Assembly (NCBI GenBank): GCA_040954595.2
Contig: CM082592.2
Span: 10,920,017-10,984,016 of the forward strand
Direction of reading: 5' to 3'
DNA length: 64,000 nucleotides
Origin: Balanoglossus misakiensis
Taxonomy: Eukaryota; Animalia; Hemichordata
Shown: positions 35,115 to 62,687 of the stretch, one piece after another
Layout: each line of letters starts with the position of its first letter
Position numbering within the stretch: the first letter of the stretch is position 1
Position numbers and translations under genes: made by a program
The notes under the pieces: model-generated
Told to the model about the DNA's origin: nothing
Seen by the model: only the letters and a program-made list of their open reading frames with translations
The model's database searches: none

Positions 35115-37779
35115 TCATGGTATATGACGAGTGGGCACTGTCGATGTCCCTTGGCGCGCTGTGCTGTGCATCTTGAGGTAACTGTCTACCACAGAGAAGA
35201 GGGCCTGGCGATTAGGTGCAACTTTCCCATTATTCGTTTTACCTTGAGTGCGTGCAGGTCTGTTTTTGTCTTGTTTTGCATCCAAATTGGCCTTTCCTGG
35301 TTGGGCAGTATTGGTCACTGATCCACTTTTCTTTGCCATTGCAATGAAGAAGAGCAGGTCGACCACCACGAGAGTGACTGCGATTGCAACAAGTAGGGAA
35401 GGGAAGGCGTATGACGACACTTGCCGAAGCAATTGATCGGATTCCTTGAGAGTTTCTTCGTGTACTGCTGTGGATTCCTCGGGCGTTGTTGTTGGCGCTT
35501 CCGAGGAATTAACTGTGACCGTGCCATTTGTAAGGATAGTTGATGTGACGTTAGAACTGTCAGATACAACGCGTGTAGACACTGGGATGTTCAAATTTCC
35601 AGTTGACGAAGATGGCGACAACTCGGCTGTTGATGATTCAGTTGTAGGCCTTTGTGAGGACGTTACTGCAGTACTGGTCGATGTTGTGGTAAATGTTTTT
35701 GGATTGAGAGTTGTTCTGGGTTCAGTTGTTGGCTTTTGTGACGTTACTGCAGTACTGGTCGATGTTGTGGTAAATGTTTTTGGATTGAGAGTTGTTCTGG
35801 GTTCAGTTGTTGGCTTTTGTGACGTTACTGCAGTACTGGTCGATGTTGTGGTAAATGTTTTTGGATTGAGAGTTGTTCTGGGTTCAGTTGTTGGCTTTTG
35901 TGACGTTACTGCAGTACTGGTCGATGTTGTGGTAAATGTTTTTGGATTGAGAGTTGTTCTGGGTTCAGTTGTTGGCTTTTGTGACGTTACTGCAGTACTG
36001 GTCGATGTTGTGGTAAATGTTTTTGGATTGAGAGTTGTTCTGGGTTCAGTTGTTGGCTTTTGTGACGTTACTGCAGTACTGGTCGATGTTGTGGTAAATG
36101 TTTTTGGATTGAGAGTTGTTCTGGGTTCAGTTGTTGGCTTTTGTGACGTTATTGCAGTACTGGTCGATGTTGTGGTAAATGTTTTTGGATTGAGAGTTGT
36201 TCTGGGTTCAGTTGTTGGCTTTTGTGACGTTACTGCAGTACTGGTCGATGTTGTGGAAAAAGTGCTTGATTTAGGAGTTGTTCCGGATTCAGTTGTATGA
36301 CCGCGTGTCGATCGCGGAGGCTTAGTTGATGTACCATCTGTAAACGTGTCCGAAGTGCTTTGGGAGGGCGTACTTGACTTGATAGAAGACGATTGTTGAA
36401 CAGATGAAACCTCAATCGTTCCTGCCTGTAATGTAACTGTTGGCCCCGTTGACGCAAGTATCGATGACCAAAACCCAGAAGTCCTGGGAACAGCTCCCTG
36501 AAAGCCTGAGTGTGACTGGTCGGGAATCATGGTTCTTGGTAGGGCTGGAAAGGGAACATACAGAATATGGAATCTATAAATGAACTGTTGGCATCTAAGT
36601 CTACTAAAACGAATCAATATGACCAGTATCCAACGCTCAATCAGTCAATCACGATTTTTAAAACGTCAAACAGAATTTATGTAAATGACCTGAATATTTG
36701 CTGATAGGAAACAAAGCAAGACTGTATTCACTTACCGGTTATTTCTGTCGTTGCCAATCCTTGTGTTTGTGTTGTAGATCGGTCAGCAGGTGTTGTCGCT
36801 GTAGTAGTCAGATAACCTTGACGGAAACACAAGAAATAAAAACACGTAGAGTGAATCCTGTCATTACGGACACCTCTCTTGTCAGGACACTTCTCTACAT
36901 GTATTACACATTTTCCCATGGCGTTGGAGAAATTACTTGAGCAAACCTATACATGGTTCGGCATTTGTTAAAATACCGTGTTCCCTAACTATTTGTTGAT
37001 AAAACTTCACTGTACCTTGATATTCGCAAATGAATCCCATATCTTCAAAATCACAACTGCTTCCTGTCCACTGAAAATAGTTGTTGGCGCTAATGTAAAC
37101 GCAGTTGTCACCACTTTGTGGTTCCTGGTTAGCCCAGTACTGGAAGGTGAGGTCTGTCCCGTCGTACCATCTAAATATGTTGTATGATTCGCGATGCAGT
37201 CCAATATAGTATCTATCAGATTTTCCCGCCAATGCATGCTCCAAACAAAGTTGTTGCTGTTGATTTCTTATCGTTGCTAGTTTTCCGCCGTACCACTGAC
37301 ACTGTGATTTCGCTTCCGATAAACTCTCATAGTCTTCGCTTCCATAATAAATCCTGTAGCACACGTGTCCGCATGTAAATTGGCCCGTGTCACACCCTAG
37401 AATGACACAGTGCGTCCTTAACATTTGAGAACATTTAGACTTGGAGGTTCACTCGAACAACACAGCAAACTGTTAATAATATTGTTGTATACCGTGGCAT
37501 ATCCAAGGAGGATTTTAAAAGGTGCCAACCTGACTTGTAAATGAACGTTTGCCTCTGTGTACGAAACAAATCATAGTGTTGTGATAGATAAGATAGCATT
37601 CTTGTCCAGACTGTTCGTTGTGCTCCAACTGAAGGACAAGGATCAAACTTGCCATGGATCACAGACTAAGCTTAGGTTTATTTGACGACGCAATAAACTG
37701 GAATCCTACCTTCAACCAATAATGAAGCAAAAGCCATTGTGATAGAAACTCTCAAAGCTGTTTCTCGGAGTATCTTCAT
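35115..37779 (-). CDS. Type-I membrane C-type lectin domain protein 2 with a long mucin-like repeat stalk
   Basis: Exons 37779-37710 (MKILRETALRVSITMAFASLLVE), 37396-37016 (CTLD: CGHVCY..EAKSQCQWYGGKLA..YYIGL..WYDGT..YWANQEPQSGDNCVYI..WTGSSC..FICEY), 36816-36736 and 36497-35115 (Ser/Thr stalk, TM AFPSLLVAIAVTLVVVDLLFFIAMA, tail). Confidence 0.85.
35659..36255 (-). repeat. Coding minisatellite, 81-bp unit x 7 plus a partial copy (27-aa TSTSTAVTSQKPTTEPRTTLNPKTFTT)
   Basis: The anchor gacgtta recurs at 35659, 35740, 35821, 35902, 35983, 36064, 36145 and 36226. Copies are near-identical; one encodes Ile instead of Val. Confidence 0.97.
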
Positions 37780-38892: not shown

Positions 38893-41800
38893 ATGAAACA
38901 CATCAGAAAGATTTCGCGCTTTGTGATTTTGATAAGTTTGGCTGTCCAATTGGCTGATGGGTTTGATAAAACAGAGTGGGTTCGTACGAGTGCTGCTCAT
39001 GATGCGGGTGAGTGGAAATAAAACTCCGTTTGTTACACTTTTCATATCAAAAGCAGTAAATTGAAGCCCAGTCAAGTTTTGTTTTGGTCAAACATTAAAC
39101 CAAGTGTTGCTGTTCATATCAGAACTGTCGCAATTGAATTTATGAAGAATCGACCACTGAAACGTCACAAACGGTGTGTTCTTCATTATGCAGAAAACAG
39201 CGGTTCTTATCTTGACTGGCCGCGTTTTCATTTTGCCGGGACGTTCTTAGCGGACACACCGACAGGAAACAACTTGGTTAAAAACTACGACACCGAGGCA
39301 TTTGATGAACGACTTCGACAGGAGCCAGACATGATGGGGTTCAACCCTGATGGATCAGGAACCTTTCAGTTGTTAGACTGTCAAGTGACATCAGTCTGCT
39401 ACAGACGAGGTGAATGCATCATTGCGCATGCGGATTCAAGTTCGAATGAAGACGCACTATTAGGAACAACTATCTTGAGTAAGTCTGATAGGTCGGTGAT
39501 TTTTTTTAGCGAACTCAACAAAGAGTGAATAAACTCTCCCATTCAGCCAAACTGCAGTAAGTCCCTTTAATATTAAAAACATTTTATAATGTAGAAGAAA
39601 TTGGCTTTAGGTTCCTTCTTTTCTAGGTAATATTAACCGTTCCCAAGCCAAGATGGCGGACCTGGACCCTGAGTATGAATTAGCATCGACCATTTTTGGA
39701 ATGTCTGTCCATTTACCAGGCGCTTTCTCAGCCAATTTACAAGAAACAGCATTGGCAAATTTATTTCGTAAAATACCCACTGGCAAAAGCAATGATAATG
39801 CGGAAGGGGCCGAATTCTTTTCCTTGCTGACCGATGTGGATTGGCAAGATGAAAAGGCATCGCAGCTTTTGGATGAGTTAAAGCTGTATAGTTCCGCCAG
39901 TACGAATCCAAATGTGCTATCGATAAAATTTAACCTCGATTCTTACGTATCCGATGTCGAATCCGCAAAGTTTCTCACTGGTAGAATCGTCGGAAGTGTT
40001 GGCGTTGCTGGGTCTTCCCTGCCATTGCACGGTCTTCGCAGTCGACAGCTGAAGCCATTAGAATCAGATGATTTTGGAATAGCACATATTGCAGTCTTTG
40101 CAGACAGGGGAAAGATACTGGTTGACCTTGGCAATGCCCTCCAGCATAACACGCAGGGATTCCCAGACCCAGACTTAAACCAAGTCTTACAAGTCGCAGT
40201 TCCATCAAGTCCAGTAACCCAGCAGCCTCTAGGTTGCAAAACTCAAGTTGAAGTCCTAGCACACGTTAACTATACAGGTCACCGGTGGTATGAAACCACT
40301 GCAGGAATCGTCGCCATTCCTGAAACAACTGTTCTCACCCAACAGCAGCTCAGTGATATTTCTAATCGACCAGTGATGATTCGACAGTTGGATAAGGACA
40401 CTCGTGTCTGTCTGGGTGTTGTTCTCTCAGAGAGAAAGGATGGCGTTGCAAGCGGCAGTTTGGGAGACAGCATATTCAGACAAATTCCTGGCGATACATG
40501 GCAATTTTACGCATTCTTGACTGTATTTGGAAGACCCTTAAGCAACGTTTCACTGGAGATTTTCAACCAAAATGGTTCGTCTTCCTGTACCAATGATAGT
40601 CATATACCTGTCACTCAACTCGCTGTTGAACATTCGGGTTGTCAGATTACTGATGATCATGGAATTGCTTCTTTCAATTTCAATGGAAGCAGTCCTGGAA
40701 ATCCACGGAAAATAATCGATGGACAGCTATATCTCTTTGACGTCAAAGTCCACGTCCAAGAAATGTTTACTTCAAAACAGCAAATAGCTGTACTCATGCA
40801 TGATGACTTTCAGGTTTCAAAAGGCGGGCCAACTTGGTATCAGGACATTTACCCTTTATTCAGAATCTACGCCAATCTGTATCCCGGTATGGTCAATGTT
40901 ATAAACATGGCGTCTTACGAAGATGTTGTACGTAAGACAGAACTGATGAAACTGGCCATGTCCCTGCCGAGAACGGACCCAGCATTCATGCCTGTGACAA
41001 GAGACCTTTCCAGACAAAAGCAACAGGTGGTTCTCCAGTGGCTTGACAACCCCCAGCTTGGTGAGGTCCCGCCATTAAGTCTGACAGAGCTTAAAAATCA
41101 CTTGCAACTGGCGATGGAACTTGAACTTGCTACAATTCCACCTTATCTGACCGCACTGTTATCCATCAAGAAGGGGGACAATTTGGAAGTTGCCAACACT
41201 CTCCGCCGTATCGCTATAGAAGAAATGCTTCACATGGCTTTGGTGGCTAACATCCTGAGAAGCGTATGCGGCAATCCGATTCTTGATGACATCCGGGTCA
41301 TTCCGAAGTACCCATCGAAAATGCCAGGGGGTGTTCATCCCCATTTGACTCTATCCCTCCGGCGACTGAGCAAAAGTCATATAGAGGATGTATTCTTGAA
41401 AATAGAGGAACCAGACAGCACCCTTCCTATTACATTACGTCAAACTGTTCTGCAAAGCATGAAAGACAATTCCAGATCCAAGTTGTCCTTGGGGGACCAC
41501 TATGATACAATTGGGAAATTCTACTTTGAGAAAATCTGGAAATCACTGAGTCACCATGCGGCCATTGACAAGACCTTGTTCAGATGTGCAAACAAAAGCA
41601 CCCAGATTACTGGGGATGACTGGTATAGTCACGTGGCTGACAAGCCATTTCCGGTGTATAATATAGAAGATGCAAGAAGAGCCATTCAGATGATCACAGA
41701 GGAAGGAGAAGGGAGTTCTCCCACCAGACCATTCGACTCTGGCGGTAATCTTTCTCATTACTTCAGATTTCTGGAGATTGTGATGGGCAACAGACTGGTA

Positions 41801-42253
41801 AATACCGTCAAAGCAAATAATACAATTGACGCCTGTGATGTTAAATATTTTGACAGATATACACCTAAGTTCTGTGGGTATGATGAGAAAACATGCCACT
41901 TTATGTACGTGCTTGAGAGGTGTGAAGTACCTTATCAATTTACAGGGGAGAGGGTTCCATTTTATTCTGATGGGATCTGGCCTATTATTGATGATCCAAC
42001 TACTGACAGTTATCCCACGGGTTCAAAGGTGAAACGCTTGTCTGACCGTTTCAACACCGAATACTCCAACTTGCTGCGATGCATCCACTGTGCTTTCAAC
42101 GGCAACCCCAGAACGATGAAGGCGTGCATGTCAGTTATGGCAAAACTCGAATTGCTGGGGCGCCAGTTAGTGAAGACGCCGATCCACCATGATGGGGATC
42201 CAAACACAGGTCCGAACGGCGCACCAACATTTGAATTCACTTCGCTTTCCTAA
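38893..42253 (+). CDS. Secreted VioB/RebD/StaD-like protein (iminophenyl-pyruvate dimer / chromopyrrolic acid synthase family) with C-terminal ferritin-like domain, 1008 aa, 3 exons
   Basis: Exon 1 38893-39007 (MKHIRKISRFVILISLAVQLADG-FDKTEWVRTSAAHDA, donor G|gtgagt), exon 2 39194-39478 (cag|...A|gtaagt), exon 3 39627-42253; both introns phase 1; 3027 nt open. Motifs collinear with VioB as recalled: SYLDWPRFHFAG..TGNN, AKMADLDP, GRIVGSVG, YANLYPGM, FMPVTRDLSRQK, LQLAMELELATIPPYLTALLSI, IAIEEMLHMALVANIL, AIQMITEEGEG, SHYFRF, GAPTFEF. Confidence 0.88.
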
Positions 42254-42423
42254 CTTAAACTTATACAGATAGAAGCTGCAACATGCCAGTAAGAATTGAA
42301 ATCGAACTGTAGCACCGTGTAATTGTAGTTGTGATGCTTAGATATAGATTGTTTTTTCTTATTCAAAATATGACGAATCTATGACTCAAAATAAACAAAT
42401 CATTTTATCTGGAGTCGTCCAAC

Positions 42424-42636: not shown

Positions 42637-45131
42637 CTAGAGGGCGTCCTTACAAGGTGCTATATTAATCTTGAGGACTCCCAACCGGTGCAGCTCCAGG
42701 AGTGCCTTGAACTCGCCACTGAAATCATGAACGCGGCTCATGGCCAGCGTGTCGTAGTAGTGGTACTTCAGTTCTTGTCCATCCAGGCCTTTGGCAAATG
42801 GCCAAAATCCGTACAAGTCCACTTGATCGCAATTCGCCAGAACAGTGGTCGCCAGATAGAAGCCTGCAAAATTAACGGGACACATGGTGTCATTGTTTTG
42901 TAAAATAGTGAACTAAGTAATGATTTAAGGTCTAAAGCTGTTTTTAAGGAATGGTTAATGAGACAAATTCAAGCTGTACTCAGTGTACACACACTAGGAC
43001 TAGGAAATAATTAAAGTCATATCACCTGAACTAAGACGTTTGTCATGTCCCCGGGTCTTCCAAAATTCCTTCACCGAATTGAAATGAGAAGGATGTATGA
43101 TATACATGTTGGCATGTCCTTTCAGAACCTTTGCTCCTCTGAGGGAAACCGGAATAAGCATTGGCGTCGAATGAACCAACACTAGAATGTTTTTATATCC
43201 TTTCATTTCGGCGATAAATTTCTGTATATCCTCTCTACGATGAAGGTTATTAAAGCTCCTAAAGAAAAAAGAAAATACATTTTGAGAATAACTACAACGC
43301 ATATCGATGAATAGTATTTAAATTCCCGCCAGCGTATAGTCCTCTTTCATGACCCCCATGTGACCTTTACATCCTGGCATTTTGTCGGTATGATTTCGCC
43401 ATTTTGAATATAAACTCTGGTATAGTTGACCATAATAAGATTATGGAATCTGAACATTCCAAATCATCATAGAACATAAAGCCGTAGCCAAAACGAACAA
43501 AAAACATGCAAGCCCTACTTTTGGAACTGGGATTTGTTGAACGTTGTGAGCGTTGTTTTATTTCCAACGTCGTTTGAAAATCCCCCAATGGTTGGTGCAT
43601 TAAATCTGTAATTGCGACAAAAGCATTCATTTTATTCTTTGAAACTAAAAAGTAACCATAATTTCGGTAGTTTCTCAGAAATTTAATTTTAACAACACTC
43701 AGCTAGTACGCGCAATATGACAAAGTTGGAGCAAAGAATAAGATTCGTCAAACATGGTTCAGTGGACATGCAAATACCTAATAACACTCTCTGCCGAATC
43801 AATCTGCCGTCCACAGCTACTATTGAGAAGGATACCACTACTACCAACAACGCTGCATGTTTTGTATTTTCTATCAACAAAGAACTGCGCCTGGAAAAGG
43901 TTTGAAAATAGTGGGAAACAACTTGAAGGTCAAGTAAAAACACAGAATTAATTTCAAGTGGCAAATAAAAGTGAAATTTCATATACCATGTTTGCTACCG
44001 AGAGAGGGGGACTGAGGGATGGAAAGGGATTGGGAGAGAGGGGGAAGGGAATCGGGAGAATTAGGCAGGGCAAGGGAGGGTGAGAGAGAATGAGAGAGAG
44101 AGGTGGAGATAGGGTGATTTACCTCGGGTAACAACCGATGTACCGAATATTCGATTTTGAATCGTCGGTCGCCTAGTGTTCCATTCACAACCTGTGAAAT
44201 GTTGGTGTTTTCCTTTGTAAGAATAAACATTCGTCTTGTGTCCACAATATCCGCAAGTTTTTGTCTGTCAAAAATGCAAATCACATAAAATTAAACATTT
44301 CTATCTACATCAATGTTAACAGAAACCGCACAGAAACCAGGATTGAAAGTAGTATTTCATTTTTACAACTGCCTCGGATTTATGATCACAGCTACCTTAT
44401 ATTATTCCTGTTTTCCTCGCTTAGTTTCCATGGTAAAGACAACTGATGTATTATCTCTTCAGCCGATACAGTGCCATTTCCTTGAGGAGTAAGCTCCGTT
44501 CCATTTACCGCCGTTTTGTTGCTTGTGTGTTCTGTCATCGATACTGTCCCTGTGGAATTGGACGAGCTTGCAGAAATCCACGTGCCTTGAATATGTGTCC
44601 TGCAAAGAATGGCAATGAATAGCTTTGGAGATCATTTGAGTCATGTCCTTGCCGATATAGTATTTCTAATAATTCTTGTTGTCGATGGTGCAAAACCGAA
44701 ACAGTGGCCTGATTAGTCGTGAAAATAACAGTGCTGTATTAGTTTAAACATGTATAACACAGTTGGAACATACCTGTCCAAGTCATAATTTTGATATAGT
44801 TATGTCAAATTCCAATATACCAGTATATATTACTTGTGACTGCTCAGAATCCTGTGGTATTACTTAGATGGTGCAGAAATGAGCACCGTTTCGTTTTAGA
44901 CACATAATCAATATCACATAGTTTATACTCTTTAGTCTCACGTAGGACTTACCGTACTGAAAGCGTTGCATCATGTGTGACCTTCGGGCCTCCGAAAGAG
45001 AGATCTCTGAAGTGACCCCAAGTAAGAGCAAGGTATAGGATGGACAGAGTGAGCACAAGACTGGCTAATATCTTCATCTGGACAAACAAACATCGTTTGC
45101 TACTGTAAGGGTTTCGTGTACAGCTTGCCAT
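42637..45131 (-). CDS. ST8SIA: Alpha-2,8-sialyltransferase-like protein (GT29, ST8Sia family)
   Basis: Exons 45131-44953 (type II anchor [18 protein letters not shown]), 44599-44396, 44264-44123, 43890-43778, 43605-43519, 43258-43026, 42863-42637. Sialylmotif [36 protein letters not shown]; motif S LSSGFYL..C.QV.LYGFWPF; motif III HYYD; motif VS HDFSGE; near-terminal Cys typical of ST8Sia. Confidence 0.9.
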
Positions 45132-51793: not shown

Positions 51794-53280
51794 ATGGGTT
51801 GCTGTAATATACAAAAATCTGACTTTGGACTCCGTTACCATGACAATTCCGTCTTTGCAAATTCTCAGGTAAGCATGATAGTATTAACTTTACATTGGCA
51901 ACAGACTGTCTCAATTATTGGCTATCTAGTATCTATCCCCGCCATTGAAAGACACCTGCATTCCATGATACAAACTAACTGCCCACATAAAGGTTACGGT
52001 AGGCTATACTGTAAGCATTTCTATGACCAGTGGTGATAATTATTATGGACATATTTCTCTGAATGTGGGCCATGATATGCAACAATTTCCTCCAAAGTTC
52101 ACTGAAGCTGTTGCATAATAGTTTTCAAACACTGTACTGTGTTGACAATCCTCCTAATCCAGTGAGAGTAAATTTGACGTAGCATAAGTTGCACCAAGAT
52201 TCTTTCGGCAGCTTTAAGAGCATGACGATTGCATAGCAACGCATTGTCGCCGCCATCTTTACTGATTCGACAAGAATCATGCATTGCGCACCCGTTTCTT
52301 TTCTCTTCCAGTGGAAATTCATACCGCCATTGCTGTTTCTATTATACCGTGTACTGTTGGCATTATACTTCGTTGGATGGTGCTGTTATACCATGACAGC
52401 CTCCATCCTTAGCAGTGGTGGGCAATATTTCCTTTATTTGACCAACTGGGGGTTCATCACTGTGACCCTTTACCTCTTAACAGCCTCGTTCTCAACGTGC
52501 TATTTTCACATCCGCACGAGGTTTAACTCTGACCTAGGTAAGTACTGAGCAAGCGCACATTAATTTTCTAGGCGCAAGAATAAAATTACTCAAACTGGTC
52601 GAATAAATTCCGATGTGATGTCGGTAACGTTACTAGTTATTTCGTATATATACAGTATTCACATACGAGTAATAATTTTGTCATTTTCAGAACGCTTATC
52701 GGAATATGATCAACATTCTACTCCTTGGTACTTCAGGTTGTCATGGTTACTCTATAACCTTGCCGTCGTGGTTGCACCAGTCATAACACTGGTATACTGG
52801 GTGGCTCTATATGAAGGCCACGGATTGCAACTGGTTGATTTCCACATACACGCTGTAAACTTCATCGCCATGGCCCTGGAGGCCATTATAGCCGCCATGC
52901 CAGTTCGTTATGTTCACGTGATCTATCCCGTGATCCTTGGCGTCTGTTACACCGTTCACAGTCTGATTTACTGGGGGATCACCGGCAATGCCATCTATTC
53001 CATCTTAGATTACACAGAAGACCCCGCTCTGGCCGCTGGCACCTCATTTGGATGTCTTGCTCTCATCATCTTCTTTCAATTACTACTTTGGGGAGTGTTC
53101 CATGCAAAGCAAAAGCTAAGCCCATTCTCTTTAGCATCGACCAATAAGATTCACGAAGCCGTTGTTTCCAAGGACACGCCCCAATGTGATGGAGTCGATA
53201 ATGTTACTTTCACATTGGAAAAGTCTACGCAAGTGGATTTAGAAGACGAACACGATGCTAACTATAATCAAATCATATAG
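51794..53280 (+). CDS. rost: Protein rolling stone-like multi-pass membrane protein
   Basis: Exons 51794-51868 (MGCCNIQKSDFGLRYHDNSVFANSQ), 52312-52537, 52691-53280. Motifs YRVLLALYF, FLYLTNWG, PWYFRLSWLLYNLA, ITLVYW, HIHAVN, PVRYVHVIYP, IYSILDY. Confidence 0.85.
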
Positions 53281-57454: not shown

Positions 57455-59841
57455 ATGATGTCTCGTATACCGCAGTTCCGTGTTATCAGCGCTACATTTC
57501 TGGAATTTACAATTCTTGGACTTTTATGTCAAATATTGTCTGCCCGAGCAGGTAGGAACATTTAACCTTTATAGCATCGAAACGAAACATGTCACAGATA
57601 TGAAGGGTGAAGGTTCCTATAGTTTTTTTAACATTTCCACGCACTTTCCTAGCATGCAACATAGCATTATCAATCTGTGCAACATCGCTCACATTGTTTA
57701 GACTAATAGGAACATATATGAGGAAGACAACAAGAATGTCAACAACAATAACAACAGTAACAACAACTATTGTCTTTTCAGCTTGTTCGGTCAATCAGCA
57801 TGCATACGAAGGCGATTGTTATGAAGTCTTCATCGTCAACAAGAAAAAATACAACGAAGCCAGGGACGAATGCAAACTGGCCAGTCCCGGCGGGGATTTC
57901 CCAATCTTGCAGAAAGCCGCAGATCACGACTTCCTTGTGTCCATCATCGATCTCTCGAAGGACTATTGGATCGGATTTCGGGATGCGGACGATGATGGTA
58001 TCTACACGTGGGTGGACAACACGACGCTGGTGGAGACCAACTACACAAACTGGAAGAGCGAAGGGGAAAGCGGATCCAACGAATGTGCAGTCATGAAAAG
58101 ATCTGAAAATTTCAGATGGGATGCCGTCAGCTGTGGATCAAGTTTTCATTTCATCTGCAGATTTCCAGGTACATTTTTTATTTCGGAAATTACATGGGAT
58201 TCTTTGTTTCGCTGTCATTTTCTCCAAATAAGTGTTCAATCATTCCCTCGGGGTTTTAATAGGGGAAATAAAAACGCCACCCTCACTGATATCACCAGTG
58301 AATGTCAAAATACATTAGGATAGTGTACTGTTACGGAAATTTGGTACAGTGATTTTGATGCCGTGGATTGTGATTCTTTTTCAAATTTCTCCCGGAAATT
58401 TGTCCAACGGGAAGCAACAAAATTAGGTCGTGAGTTTGAACCTTACTGTGTGCATCGATGCGGTAGGTGCCGAGTTCGAAGCTCATTCAATACAAGTTTA
58501 CTTCATTTGCGTTTTAATTCAGCTTTGAACTAAGGGATATATGTCCATAACTACTGCGTCAAATTGGTGGAACGTGCCTGCAATTCACAGCAGGGGGTTC
58601 GTACATACACAACATTATAATGACACAACATTCCACCCACGGGGCATATTCAGCTCACACCTGGTGAAATTAGCTGTAATCCTGTTTCTTGTGAAGTTCC
58701 AATACCCATATTGGCAAATACGTTGATCCATTGTTCCGATAGGATACAAATTCGAAAGGTGCCCTCCGCATAGAAATGGGCTTCATTTTTTTCTTTAATA
58801 TGTGTTCGTTTTATTAGCCTGAATTATTGCGCCAGCTTTCGTTCAATACTTCATCGACTGCATATTCAAATGTAAACTCAAGATTGACAAGCAATTTCCT
58901 TCGTAATAATCTTGGTGTTGTTGCTCCGCGAAGGGTTATGCACGCACAAAGCCGGAAATGACAGCGAATTAACAAAAACACAGGATGCATGTAATTTTGA
59001 CGATAAAGTGTAATATTTCATAGGTTCCATGCTTTTCTATGGGACGAAGTGTATTCAGGACTACATGTTGAATGAATGTAGTGACATATTGAAACGTTTT
59101 GTTCTGCAAAAGGATTGCTCGAACACACCTAGGACTATTGCGAAGACACGTGACAAGCGGAGTTGCAAGCTATAATTGGCATCATCATTACCCATAACAT
59201 TTTCAGAATTTCATTTCTGACGATTTATGATAGATCGTCGTCGGCCATTGAAGCTGACGTCATTAAAGTCATCGACAGAATAGTTTCCGAAATGATTGTA
59301 GAGTTCCACGCAAGTTCCATTTTCAGACCACACTGTTTTCTTTATCATATTAGGCGTTACAACCCCAGCACCTGCGACCACATCATCTCCCACAACACCG
59401 CAGAAAATAACGACGTCTTTCACAACTTTACCGGACACAACGCCATTACCCACGACTCTACTAGTTACAACGCCCTCACCAACGACACCACGTGACACAT
59501 CCCCATCACCAACTACGCAGCCAGATACAACAACGTCCTCGCCAGTAACTCAACAAGAAACAGATTTGACATCACACAATCTCCAAGAAAGCACAACAGT
59601 TGATCCAGCCACGACTCAATCTACCACCACTCTACCAGTCACAACAAAATCGCCTGTCGTAGTTAGACACAAGGGCGGGCTGTCGGAAATTCAACGCCAG
59701 GCCCCATTTTTGACGATTACCACAATTCTCGCTATCATTGTGGCCGTCATTGTCATTTTGGACCTCCTCTATCTTTATGGATGCCATCTAAAATTTCAAT
59801 CGCGACCAAAGGAGCAAGATTTCAGTCTTAAACGCTTCTAA
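57455..59841 (+). CDS. Type-I membrane C-type lectin domain protein 3
   Basis: Exons 57455-57551 (MMSRIPQFRVISATFLEFTILGLLCQILSARA), 57782-58168 (CTLD: YEGDCY..EARDECK..YWIGF..WVDNT..NECAVM..WDAVSC..FICRFP), 59354-59841 (Thr-rich stalk, TM APFLTITTILAIIVAVIVILDLLYLY). Confidence 0.87.
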
Positions 59842-60888: not shown

Positions 60889-62687
60889 ATGAATCGGAAA
60901 CCATTCTGCCACGGGGTTCGTGCTGTTGTTCTGGAATTCACGGTTTTTGGACTTCTAGGCCATATGATTTCCGTCGGAGCAGGTAGGCACAAACGGTTAA
61001 ATTCATACGATAATTTCACTGCAATATTTAGTCTATTCACACGTTTATCGACTCGTGCAGGTTTTTGTCACAGTGGCGTTGTGTATAGAACTCGATTGAG
61101 ACTACATGTACTTTGTGACAATGAGATTTTTAAAACTTCTGTGGTTAACGTTAGGCGAAGGAAGGGACATTGCCGACGGGGAAAATGTTTCTATTTTCCA
61201 ATTACCTAAGATGTGCTGAACACGGAAGCTAATGAAAATACGACATTATTTCCAGCTTGTGCAGCTTTAAACCAGCATGAATACGAAGGCGGTTGTTACG
61301 AAATCTTTGTTCTTAACGACTTGAACTACGAAGAAGGTAGAGCAGTTTGCAAACTGATCAGTTCGGACGGCGATTATCCAATCCTACGGAAAGCCGCAGA
61401 CAGCGACTTTCTCTTGTCCATCATAGATCTCTCCAAGGACTATTGGATCGGATTTCGGGATGCGGACGATGATGGTATCTACACGTGGGTGGACAACACG
61501 ACGCTGGTGGAGACCAACTACACAAACTGGAAGAGCGAAGGGGAAAGTGGGTCAAACGAGTGCGCGGTGATGAAGAGATCTGACGACTACCGATGGGATG
61601 CCGTCGGTTGTGGTTCAAATTATGAATACATCTGTAGATTTCCAGGTAATGTTTTGACGGCATATGATGACATGTAGATCTGACTGGAATTTCTCCTTTT
61701 GCCACTGACGCTGTTTTAAGTTGGCATGATGGACAATGGTGGCATTTAAGACTTATTTTCGTTTCCTATGAATATGCTCAAAGCAACGAGAATAGTTATC
61801 GACCGACATGGCATACTTGAATGTTTTTCAATCCAAGGCCTCTGAAAAAAGCACACTGAACTTCTGCGAATGGAACGCAATAATCAATGGCACGAGTATA
61901 GTACTTCTTGCAGATACTCCCCAGTTATAGTCCCGGACATCTGCCGACCTAAATTCACAGATTACACATCGATTTTGTGCCAAATTCCGAGAAGAGTTCG
62001 ACCAATCTTAGCTAGAATTCTATATTTAGAGTTTGTTGGACGGAAACTACCCTTGTAAAGGTGGCTTCTATCGTTACATAAGATTGGTCGTACCTTGTAA
62101 AGGTGGCTTCTATCGTTACATCAGATTGGTCGTACCTCATGGTAGTTGAACATGCTTTTGATTTCCTTTTGAAGACTAATGAAAGAACGTTGACATTTTT
62201 AACAGTATCAAGTGGATCAACTCCAGCACCAACGACCTCGCCGTTGCCAACAACAACCTTAAAGGAAACAACGACGATGTCCGTCACCACCCTTCAAGAT
62301 ACGACGCCATCGCCAACAACTCTTCCAGATACAACGTCTTCAAGTTCGACCAAGGCTGCACTGGTGACAACGACCTCCCCGACCACCCAACAAGAAACCA
62401 GTCTGTCGCCTGCCACCACAGTTGATCCTACCACGACCGTGTTTGCCACCACAACCATCACCACAACCGAATCAGTGACAACGCCATCTGCGGTAATCAG
62501 AAACAAGGACGGACTGACAGAGATTCAGCGACAGGCACCGTTCTGGACAATAACCACAATTCTCGCCATCGTCGTCGCCGTCATCGTCGTCTTGGACCTC
62601 GCCTGTCTTCTTGGATGCAATTTAAAATCGAAAAAAGCACAGAGGAAAAGGGAGACTTCAGTCTCAAGAATTTCTGACTCGAAATAA
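60889..62687 (+). CDS. Type-I membrane C-type lectin domain protein 4 (tandem paralogue of lectin 3)
   Basis: Exons 60889-60982 (MNRKPFCHGVRAVVLEFTVFGLLGHMISVGA), 61256-61645 (CTLD), 62206-62687 (stalk, TM APFWTITTILAIVVAVIVVLDLACLL). Confidence 0.87.
62051..62137. repeat. 42-bp intronic tandem duplication (2 copies)
   Basis: ccttgtaaaggtggcttctatcgttacat(a/c)agattggtcgta at 62051 and 62093. Confidence 0.9.

Follow-up and report, generated by a model that had tools for sequence, protein, structure and literature searches.

The window, i.e., the whole 64-kb stretch of Balanoglossus misakiensis DNA that was analyzed, contained a forward-strand gene in which the spliced segments 38893–39007, 39194–39478 and 39627–42253 formed an open reading frame of 1008 amino acids with two GT-AG introns, both of phase 1. 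The ATG at 38893 had an A at position −3, and an in-frame TGA was located five codons upstream. Introns were also found in the C-type lectin, sialyltransferase and rolling-stone-domain genes of the window, which indicates animal DNA. The features of the locus were as follows:

37710–37779, reverse strand: phase-1 signal exon of a C-type lectin gene in head-to-head orientation at a distance of 1.1 kb; not homologous to exon 1
38893–39007, forward strand: coding exon 1, 38 codons plus 1 nt, with the phase-1 donor GTGAGT
38893–38961, forward strand: predicted signal peptide, residues 1–23, cleavage after G23 (KD of the best 9-mer 3.2; A at −3, G at −1)
38962–39007, forward strand: first 15 residues of the mature chain, conserved among acorn-worm homologues
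39008–39193, forward strand: intron 1 (GT-AG), containing an in-frame ATG at 39142; the acceptor AG precedes 39194
39194–39478, forward strand: exon 2, including G42/S43, the start position of bacterial relatives
39479–39626, forward strand: intron 2 (GT-AG, phase 1); the protein alignment is gapless there in five of six homologues, with a deletion in the Glandiceps model
39627–42253, forward strand: exon 3, encoding the beta-rich N-terminal, cytochrome-c-like and ferritin-like domains and ending in the stop codon TAA
40823–41071, forward strand: cytochrome-c-like helical domain, residues 533–615, without CxxCH; predicted haem-b site
40889–40891, forward strand: invariant M555 within the cytochrome-c-like domain
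40988–40990, forward strand: invariant M588 within the same domain
41102–41782, forward strand: core of the ferritin-like domain (PF12902; Pfam E-value = 5 × 10−54), predicted di-metal ligands E633, E666, H669, E828 and H844
42390–42395, forward strand: candidate polyadenylation signal AATAAA

Exon 1 had been described in the earlier note as a separate signal-peptide exon. On DNA alone it did not stand out from chance: when hydrophobic ATG..GT[AG]AG exons were scanned for, seven candidates came up in the 64-kb window and from one to eight in each of ten shuffles. In the comparison anchored on the exon 2 motif, the last 15 residues encoded by exon 1 aligned without gaps with all six full-length acorn-worm homologues (4–8 identical positions of 15), and the match score was reached in 0 of 5000 shuffles. 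Since the proof is supplied by conservation among homologues and not by the DNA scan, exon 1 is accepted as a real part of the gene, which sequence comparison confirms. It is a genuine signal-peptide exon, although not a signal-only one, because the 23 signal residues are followed by 15 conserved residues of the mature chain. The splice falls within codon 39; the position corresponding to the bacterial Met comes three residues later and S-Y-L four residues later, in contrast to the distance of five residues to the bacterial N-terminus that had been proposed. The N-terminal match to VioB itself was reproduced with the VioB protein of locus L083.

The alternative that exon 1 was miscalled, the product being a cytosolic protein started at ATG 39142 or the DNA a bacterial contaminant, draws on the one to eight comparable exons per shuffled 64 kb and on the in-frame position of this ATG. 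However, the intron-derived peptide had 0–1 identities of 15 and negative scores against the homologues, all six of which matched the exon 1 peptide; thus, the start at ATG 39142 is unlikely and was rejected. Contamination is opposed by the two GT-AG introns, the animal neighbour genes and the 44–57% identity of the six full-length acorn-worm homologues to the window protein. As a whole, this alternative is extremely improbable.

According to a heuristic evaluation based on hydrophobicity, the −3/−1 residues and homologues, the N-terminus had the features of a eukaryotic Sec signal, and the n/h/c layout given in the earlier note was borne out: a basic n-region was followed by residues 10–18, the 9-mer with the highest hydrophobicity in the entire protein, and by A(−3)/G(−1) ahead of F24. 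A hydrophobic leader with the shared mature start was present in six of six full-length acorn-worm homologues; the leaders were unrelated in sequence, with small −3/−1 residues in most, so that the conserved part set in at the predicted cleavage site, as a signal peptide would lead one to expect. At a threshold of KD ≥ 2.2 in the first residues, a leader was detected in 23 of the 28 named animal rows (isoforms and paralogues counted; sponges, jellyfish, brachiopod, amphioxus and tunicates, among others) versus none of the 115 bacterial-type rows, i.e., the non-animal matches of the homologue search (maximum 1.72). Nearly all bacterial relatives began at M-S-Y-L, and the nearest of them have no signal. 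The five leaderless animal rows were a Saccoglossus fragment, a Branchiostoma belcheri model, one Clavelina isoform, an Ephydatia model and a Corticium row that was narrowly below the threshold (2.09). The gain of the leader is placed at or before the common ancestor of the three sampled acorn-worm families, and probably early in animals.

N-glycosylation sequons had also been put forward as an argument for secretion. The nine listed sequons exist; the enrichment does not (9 versus 6.9 ± 2.4 in shuffles, p = 0.24), and only N348 (3/6) and N841 (2/6) recurred in more than one other acorn-worm protein. Sequon enrichment was therefore rejected as being at chance level and mostly unconserved. The secretory pathway is better supported by animal-only cysteine pairs, which are candidates for disulfides: C107/C113 was found in 6/7 acorn-worm and 9/11 other animal rows (C113 in 0/16 bacterial rows), and C952/C967 in 7/7, 6/11 and 0/16 rows, respectively, at a cysteine content of 1.6–2.0% in the animal proteins versus 0.7%. 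Extracellular modules were fused to the family in some relatives, namely, TSP1-type modules in tunicate members and LDLa repeats in one amphioxus member. These fusions suggest binding roles, and together with the loss of the di-metal ligands in the jellyfish homologue they speak for a protein that enters the ER and is then retained in the cell (ER, granule or lysosome), or for a non-catalytic matrix or immune protein. Two homologues (P0003 and P0004) end in tetrapeptides that we take to be KDEL-like, which points the same way. The window protein had neither a KDEL-like end nor a second strongly hydrophobic segment, and the full set of di-metal ligands was kept in 17 of 18 animal rows, both of which count against retention or a non-catalytic role; this explanation is considered decidedly unlikely.

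Four neighbouring lectins of the window had phase-1 signal exons, as the earlier note had stated, and capture of exon 1 from one of them had been proposed there. No DNA likeness was found between exon 1 and the lectin exons (best other blastn E-value = 0.11), the exon was conserved in Ptychodera, Glandiceps and Saccoglossus, i.e., in three acorn-worm families, and leaders occurred across phyla; exon capture was consequently rejected. Phase-1 signal exons are common among animal secreted genes.

The best homologues of the window protein were annotated proteins of Ptychodera flava (three), Glandiceps talaboti (one) and Saccoglossus kowalevskii (three), and it grouped with the Ptychodera copies in three trees (support 97–100). 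The homologue search returned 1817 representatives at E ≤ 1 × 10−10. Names were looked up for 30 of the 150 listed, and the named animal members among the matches listed included proteins of Branchiostoma, Lingula, Styela, Clavelina, Sanderia, Corticium and Ephydatia; a Dysidea member came up separately. An alignment-driven search added one animal protein and missed known ones, and it says nothing on echinoderms, molluscs or vertebrates. The distribution of the family across many animal phyla is an observation that the earlier note had missed. The animal homologues bear automatic database names, with no function given beyond the dimer-synthase label of UniRef.

In an unrooted tree of 48 rows, 14 named animal rows were split from 20 bacterial rows (SH-aLRT 99), the sponges standing apart from the other animals, whereas a mixture-model tree that included four VioB/RebD rows united the animals in one clade with a support of 73, and a FastTree of 116 rows placed the root inside the animals. 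It should be noted that the first two trees were subsets of the 116 rows plus six and one new rows, respectively, and that the bacterial rows were picked by likeness to the animal queries. A single early animal origin is thus compatible with, rather than established by, these trees.

The window protein had been regarded as a VioB/RebD/StaD enzyme redirected to secretion. Exon 3 scored 15 bits against TIGR04492, the VioB equivalog (cut-off 1250), whereas true VioB loci scored 1596–1922, and BLAST against VioB and a RebD-type protein, both taken from genomic loci (VioB from L083), gave 24–28% identity in local stretches (E-value = 1 × 10−5 to 1 × 10−7). The VioB/RebD rows formed their own clade (support 100) with the window protein outside. 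Membership in VioB was rejected on the bit score and the local identity, and the protein is placed on a distant sister branch. The broad order of the VioB superfamily was present (N-terminal beta region, MPxTR[DE]LS domain, PF12902 domain), and the positions R49, T62, R273, E402, Y548, T591, R592, S595 and K598 were invariant with VioB/RebD in nearly all rows.

In the C-terminal domain, a four-helix bundle with an E, ExxH, E, H ligand pattern was found, forming a predicted metal site. The five ligands were kept in 7/7 acorn-worm, 10/11 other animal (the exception being the jellyfish homologue), 16/16 bacterial and 7/7 VioB/RebD rows, and among the histidines of the window protein, conservation across nearly all rows was confined to H669 and H844, both of which belong to this site. 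In the AlphaFold model of the Ptychodera homologue P0002 (pLDDT 80), beta-rich domains were accompanied by a small helical domain and, at the C-terminus, by a further helical domain. The C-terminal one matched 3hl1 (Z = 23.2, rmsd = 2.7, 253 residues aligned); its other fold neighbours were Dps, bacterioferritin, Mn catalase and rubrerythrin-type proteins (Z = 7–10). Foldseek with the whole homologue model returned only 3hl1 and weak rows of Ig/macroglobulin type, and Pfam gave no match on the non-ferritin parts.

The small helical domain (residues 533–615) contained M555 and M588, which were invariant in 41/41 rows (7 acorn-worm, 11 other animal, 16 bacterial and 7 VioB/RebD). CxxCH was found in none of 491 family segments, and therefore no covalent haem c is expected. 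The domain folded alone gave a pLDDT of 88.9, and seven of its top eight structural matches were c-type cytochrome entries, headed by monohaem PccH (4rlr; Z = 6.5, rmsd = 3.0, 78/83 residues aligned), a Z score that for a small helical domain is under the structure-comparison tool's own safe range. In hhalign against 27 PSCyt1 domains, the score was 26.3 versus at most 17.2 in 99 shuffles (P = 1.7 × 10−4; P = 1.1 × 10−3 in a five-row run), and M588 fell on the axial Met of the profile alignment. Searching PDB sequences with a profile of the small domain yielded nothing credible. Since the Z score is middling, the Foldseek match is not significant (E-value = 5.3) and the Atlas scores (0.75–0.76) are leads only, residues 533–615 are regarded on these models as a likely, not proven, haem-b site. 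The predicted site fits the report of haem b and catalase activity for VioB in the accessible part of a 2021 review (PMC9705886), according to which VioB is without a structure.

The closest non-animal relatives were bacterial PF12902 proteins that are uncharacterized; they are either single chains of about 900 aa or pairs split into about 620 and 350–390 aa. In their gene neighbourhoods, tblastn with VioA and RebO was too blunt as a test for L-amino acid oxidase (LAAO), because these two proteins do not match each other, and it was replaced by a motif scan. A flavin amino-acid-oxidase motif adjoined 18 of 18 VioB/RebD-type loci, whereas beside 79 loci of the closer bacterial relatives (54 of at least 15 kb and 25 of less than 15 kb) the scan, which would miss oxidases of other classes, revealed no credible case; three matches in two of the 79 loci were judged to be shadow frames, and Pfam gave nothing for the one that was scanned. 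The 64-kb window was likewise free of flavin LAAO motifs and matches, although an animal genome would not be expected to show such linkage. These results bear on the model of the earlier note, in which a VioB-type imine-dimer synthase, provided with a signal exon captured from lectins, would act together with a secreted host LAAO. The N-terminal motif and metal ligands common to VioB-type enzymes and the phase-1 signal exons of the four lectins are in its favour. It is opposed by the missing LAAO linkage in the closer bacterial branch, by the dissimilarity of exon 1 and the lectin exons at the DNA level, by the occurrence of this exon in three acorn-worm families and of leaders in further phyla, and by the generality of phase-1 signal exons in animal secreted genes. 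In this exact form, the model is highly unlikely; a pairing of the coupler with an LAAO, by itself, may still apply.

Other enzymes making imino or keto acids adjoined a minority of the closer-relative loci. An ebo cluster was found in 12 of the 79 loci, a P450 gene in 10, an aminotransferase–methyltransferase pair in 9, lodA in 2, a lodB-like gene in 3 and a multicopper-oxidase-domain gene in 2, whereas 51 loci had no recurrent partner of any of these kinds (aminotransferase, P450, lod, ebo or multicopper oxidase). The clustered cases came from few lineages, 7 of the 12 ebo loci being near-identical Undibacterium-type clusters. Consequently, the bacterial branch is accompanied, irregularly, by several enzymes forming imino or keto acids and H2O2. 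The ebo genes were tied to thallusin in the main text of a preprint, which made no mention of the closer-relative PF12902 gene.

Taken together, these data suggest, with a probability of roughly 0.45, that the window gene encodes an old, secreted haem/di-iron enzyme for the oxidative coupling of small aromatic molecules. According to this tentative scheme, the protein would enter the ER, be cleaved after G23 and form the new disulfides. Haem b would sit noncovalently in the cytochrome-c-like domain; M588 would occupy the customary axial position, the second ligand being M555 or a Tyr close by. Two irons would be bound in the ferritin-like bundle, and electrons would pass between the haem and this bundle. 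With O2 or H2O2 as the oxidant, substrate radicals could be made and two aromatic units joined, on the pattern of the C-beta coupling carried out by CPA synthases, which are described in the accessible part of PMC10851217 as haem proteins coupling two imines. The substrates might be imino or keto acids, or phenols or indoles derived from aromatic amino acids, and the site of action might be secretory granules or mucus. Imino acids hydrolyse fast in water, so that an open mucus layer would suit such a coupler poorly. The biosynthetic-type neighbours of the bacterial relatives (aminotransferase–methyltransferase, P450, lod and ebo) count in favour of oxidative coupling. The remoteness of the homology to characterized enzymes, as judged from sequence, counts against it, as do the missing flavin LAAO partner and the 51 partnerless loci.

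The main rival to oxidative coupling is a secreted enzyme for handling peroxide or iron, be it a catalase, a peroxidase or a ferroxidase, which would guard mucus and epithelia and make no dedicated coupling product. The fold neighbours of the C-terminal domain listed above are consistent with such a role, as are the catalase activity of VioB and the position of PF12902 genes beside the H2O2-producing lodA/lodB in fungi, as described in the accessible parts of PMC9705886 and PMC4417212, respectively. In bacteria, lodA/lodB neighbours were found in loci L011, L060 and probably L016, and most relatives had no pathway partner; moreover, some amphioxus proteins consisted of a signal and the ferritin-like domain only (P0194). 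However, about 600 N-terminal residues keep the positions invariant with VioB/RebD, more than a scavenger should need, and the actinomycete clusters with P450 and aminotransferase genes look biosynthetic. Peroxide or iron handling is judged possible, if somewhat unlikely.

No paper on the animal VioB-like family was found by a search of the open-access literature. The family was not mentioned in the main text and two supplements of PMC4729200, in eight supplements of PMC11175523, in the text and one supplement of PMC13390645 or in the texts of PMC13012124 and PMC5133447; the look-ups took in hemichordate, tunicate and amphioxus genome papers. PF12902 in a schistosome preprint referred to ordinary ferritins and not to this family. 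As for possible substrates, a peroxidase-type luciferase has reportedly been described for Balanoglossus. Enteropneusts contain many halogenated aromatics (phenols and indoles) and secrete much mucus, according to the accessible part of PMC6315191, and lamellarin-type pyrroles can arise by oxidative dimerization of arylpyruvates, as stated in that of PMC4278223. Halogenated aromatics, luciferase and lamellarins are substrate leads and not functional evidence.

A bolder version of the coupling hypothesis, which we consider unlikely in its full form, is that animals have their own secreted VioB-type coupler predating the split between sponges and other animals. It would be a bis-Met haem-b enzyme, derived from cytochrome c and also containing di-iron, that makes dimeric aromatic alkaloids or is the peroxidase-type luciferase of Balanoglossus. 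The alkaloids may include ascidian and sponge diarylpyrroles or halogenated indole and phenol dimers of acorn worms. If this were true, the animals themselves could be the makers of such alkaloids, and the place of the haem in VioB/RebD/StaD, enzymes for which the search returned no structure, would be given by the cytochrome-c-like domain as well. In its design the single exon is nothing unusual; what is surprising, and directly testable, is the secreted branch among animals, in five phyla or more, of a superfamily otherwise known here only from cytosolic bacterial alkaloid pathways, together with the predicted domain of cytochrome-c-like type with its two Met residues, at which the haem of VioB itself could be sought. 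For the chemistry of marine invertebrates, the gene is a concrete candidate, suited to expression, for an oxidative coupling enzyme encoded by the host.

Comparison with known systems revealed both common and distinguishing features. With VioB/RebD/StaD, the window protein shares domain order, length class, the N-terminal motif, the ferritin-like ligands and the two invariant Met residues; it differs in scoring far under the family cut-off, in its separate long branch, in its signal peptide, introns and extra cysteines, and in that its closer bacterial branch has no adjacent flavin LAAO. The bacterial PF12902 proteins are about 30–38% identical to it and share its motifs, whereas they start at M-S-Y-L without a leader and have fewer cysteines; their genes lie in operons with ebo, with lodAB, or with P450 and aminotransferase genes. 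CC_0557 (PDB 3hl1) and the Dps/bacterioferritin/Mn-catalase superfamily resemble the C-terminal fold of the homologue model (Z = 23.2 for 3hl1) but have no counterpart of the 600-residue N-terminal part. Class I cytochromes c (PccH 4rlr, PSCyt1) may share the fold predicted for the small domain and have a C-terminal pattern in common with it, M-P-x(n)-L-S-x(n)-W, whereas the family has no CxxCH and has a second invariant Met near the place of the His. The annotated animal proteins, labelled 'Iminophenyl-pyruvate dimer synthase domain-containing protein' in UniRef, are true homologues, most of them with a hydrophobic leader, although their N-termini vary by phylum, from TSP1 modules in tunicates to nearly no spacer in some amphioxus proteins.

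In the window, the gene encoding the VioB-like protein (38893..42253, plus strand) was accompanied by the following animal genes and exons:

36933-37779 and 35115-36644, minus strand: C-type lectin gene, head-to-head with the VioB-like gene, 1.1 kb from its exon 1
42637-45077, minus strand: sialyltransferase (PF00777) gene, tail-to-tail with the VioB-like gene
52564-53280, plus strand: exon encoding a Rolling-stone (PF21534) domain
57455-58323 and 60889-61677, plus strand: two tandem C-type lectin genes

The product of the head-to-head lectin gene had a transmembrane-like segment and a long stalk built of Thr/Ser-rich tandem repeats, and this gene possibly shares a promoter with the VioB-like gene. 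The first exon of the sialyltransferase gene was hydrophobic and ended in phase 2. The tandem lectins had an identical run of about 48 residues, with diverged sequences elsewhere, which suggests a recent duplication or gene conversion.

Among the homologous proteins, the jellyfish homologue P0170 had lost the di-metal ligands, and the amphioxus protein P0194 consisted solely of a signal and a ferritin-like domain. The acorn-worm homologues P0003 and P0004 ended in tetrapeptides that we take to be KDEL-like. A clade of seven proteins (P0156, P0161, P0163, P0165, P0171, P0175, and P0176), several with N-terminal extensions, was nested among the bacterial rows in the tree; the three members looked up were all Logan records. 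This clade possibly represents a second acquisition, by non-animal eukaryotes.

In Pseudomonadota and Bacteroidota, the family gene was found within or adjoining ebo (thallusin) clusters (bacterial loci L006, L031, L033, L035, L040-42, L050, L054, L059, L065, and L079), where it occurred in a fused or a split form; a search limited to the text of two ebo papers found no mention of it. In actinomycetes, it was grouped with genes for a P450 and an aminotransferase-methyltransferase fusion (L037, L043, L049, L051, L058, L066, L069, L071, L073, L076, and L078), frequently with a GH95-like hydrolase and a penicillin amidase, in what is apparently a biosynthetic cluster. The lodA/lodB quinoprotein amino-acid oxidase genes adjoined the family gene at L011:269-11213, which had two tandem copies, at L060, and probably at L016.

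Both invariant methionines of the cytochrome-c-like domain (M555 and M588) were also present in VioB, as M522 and M557 (true VioB locus, L083:1498-4494), and in RebD-type proteins; consequently, judging from this conservation, the pair would be predicted to provide haem ligands in VioB and RebD-type enzymes as well.
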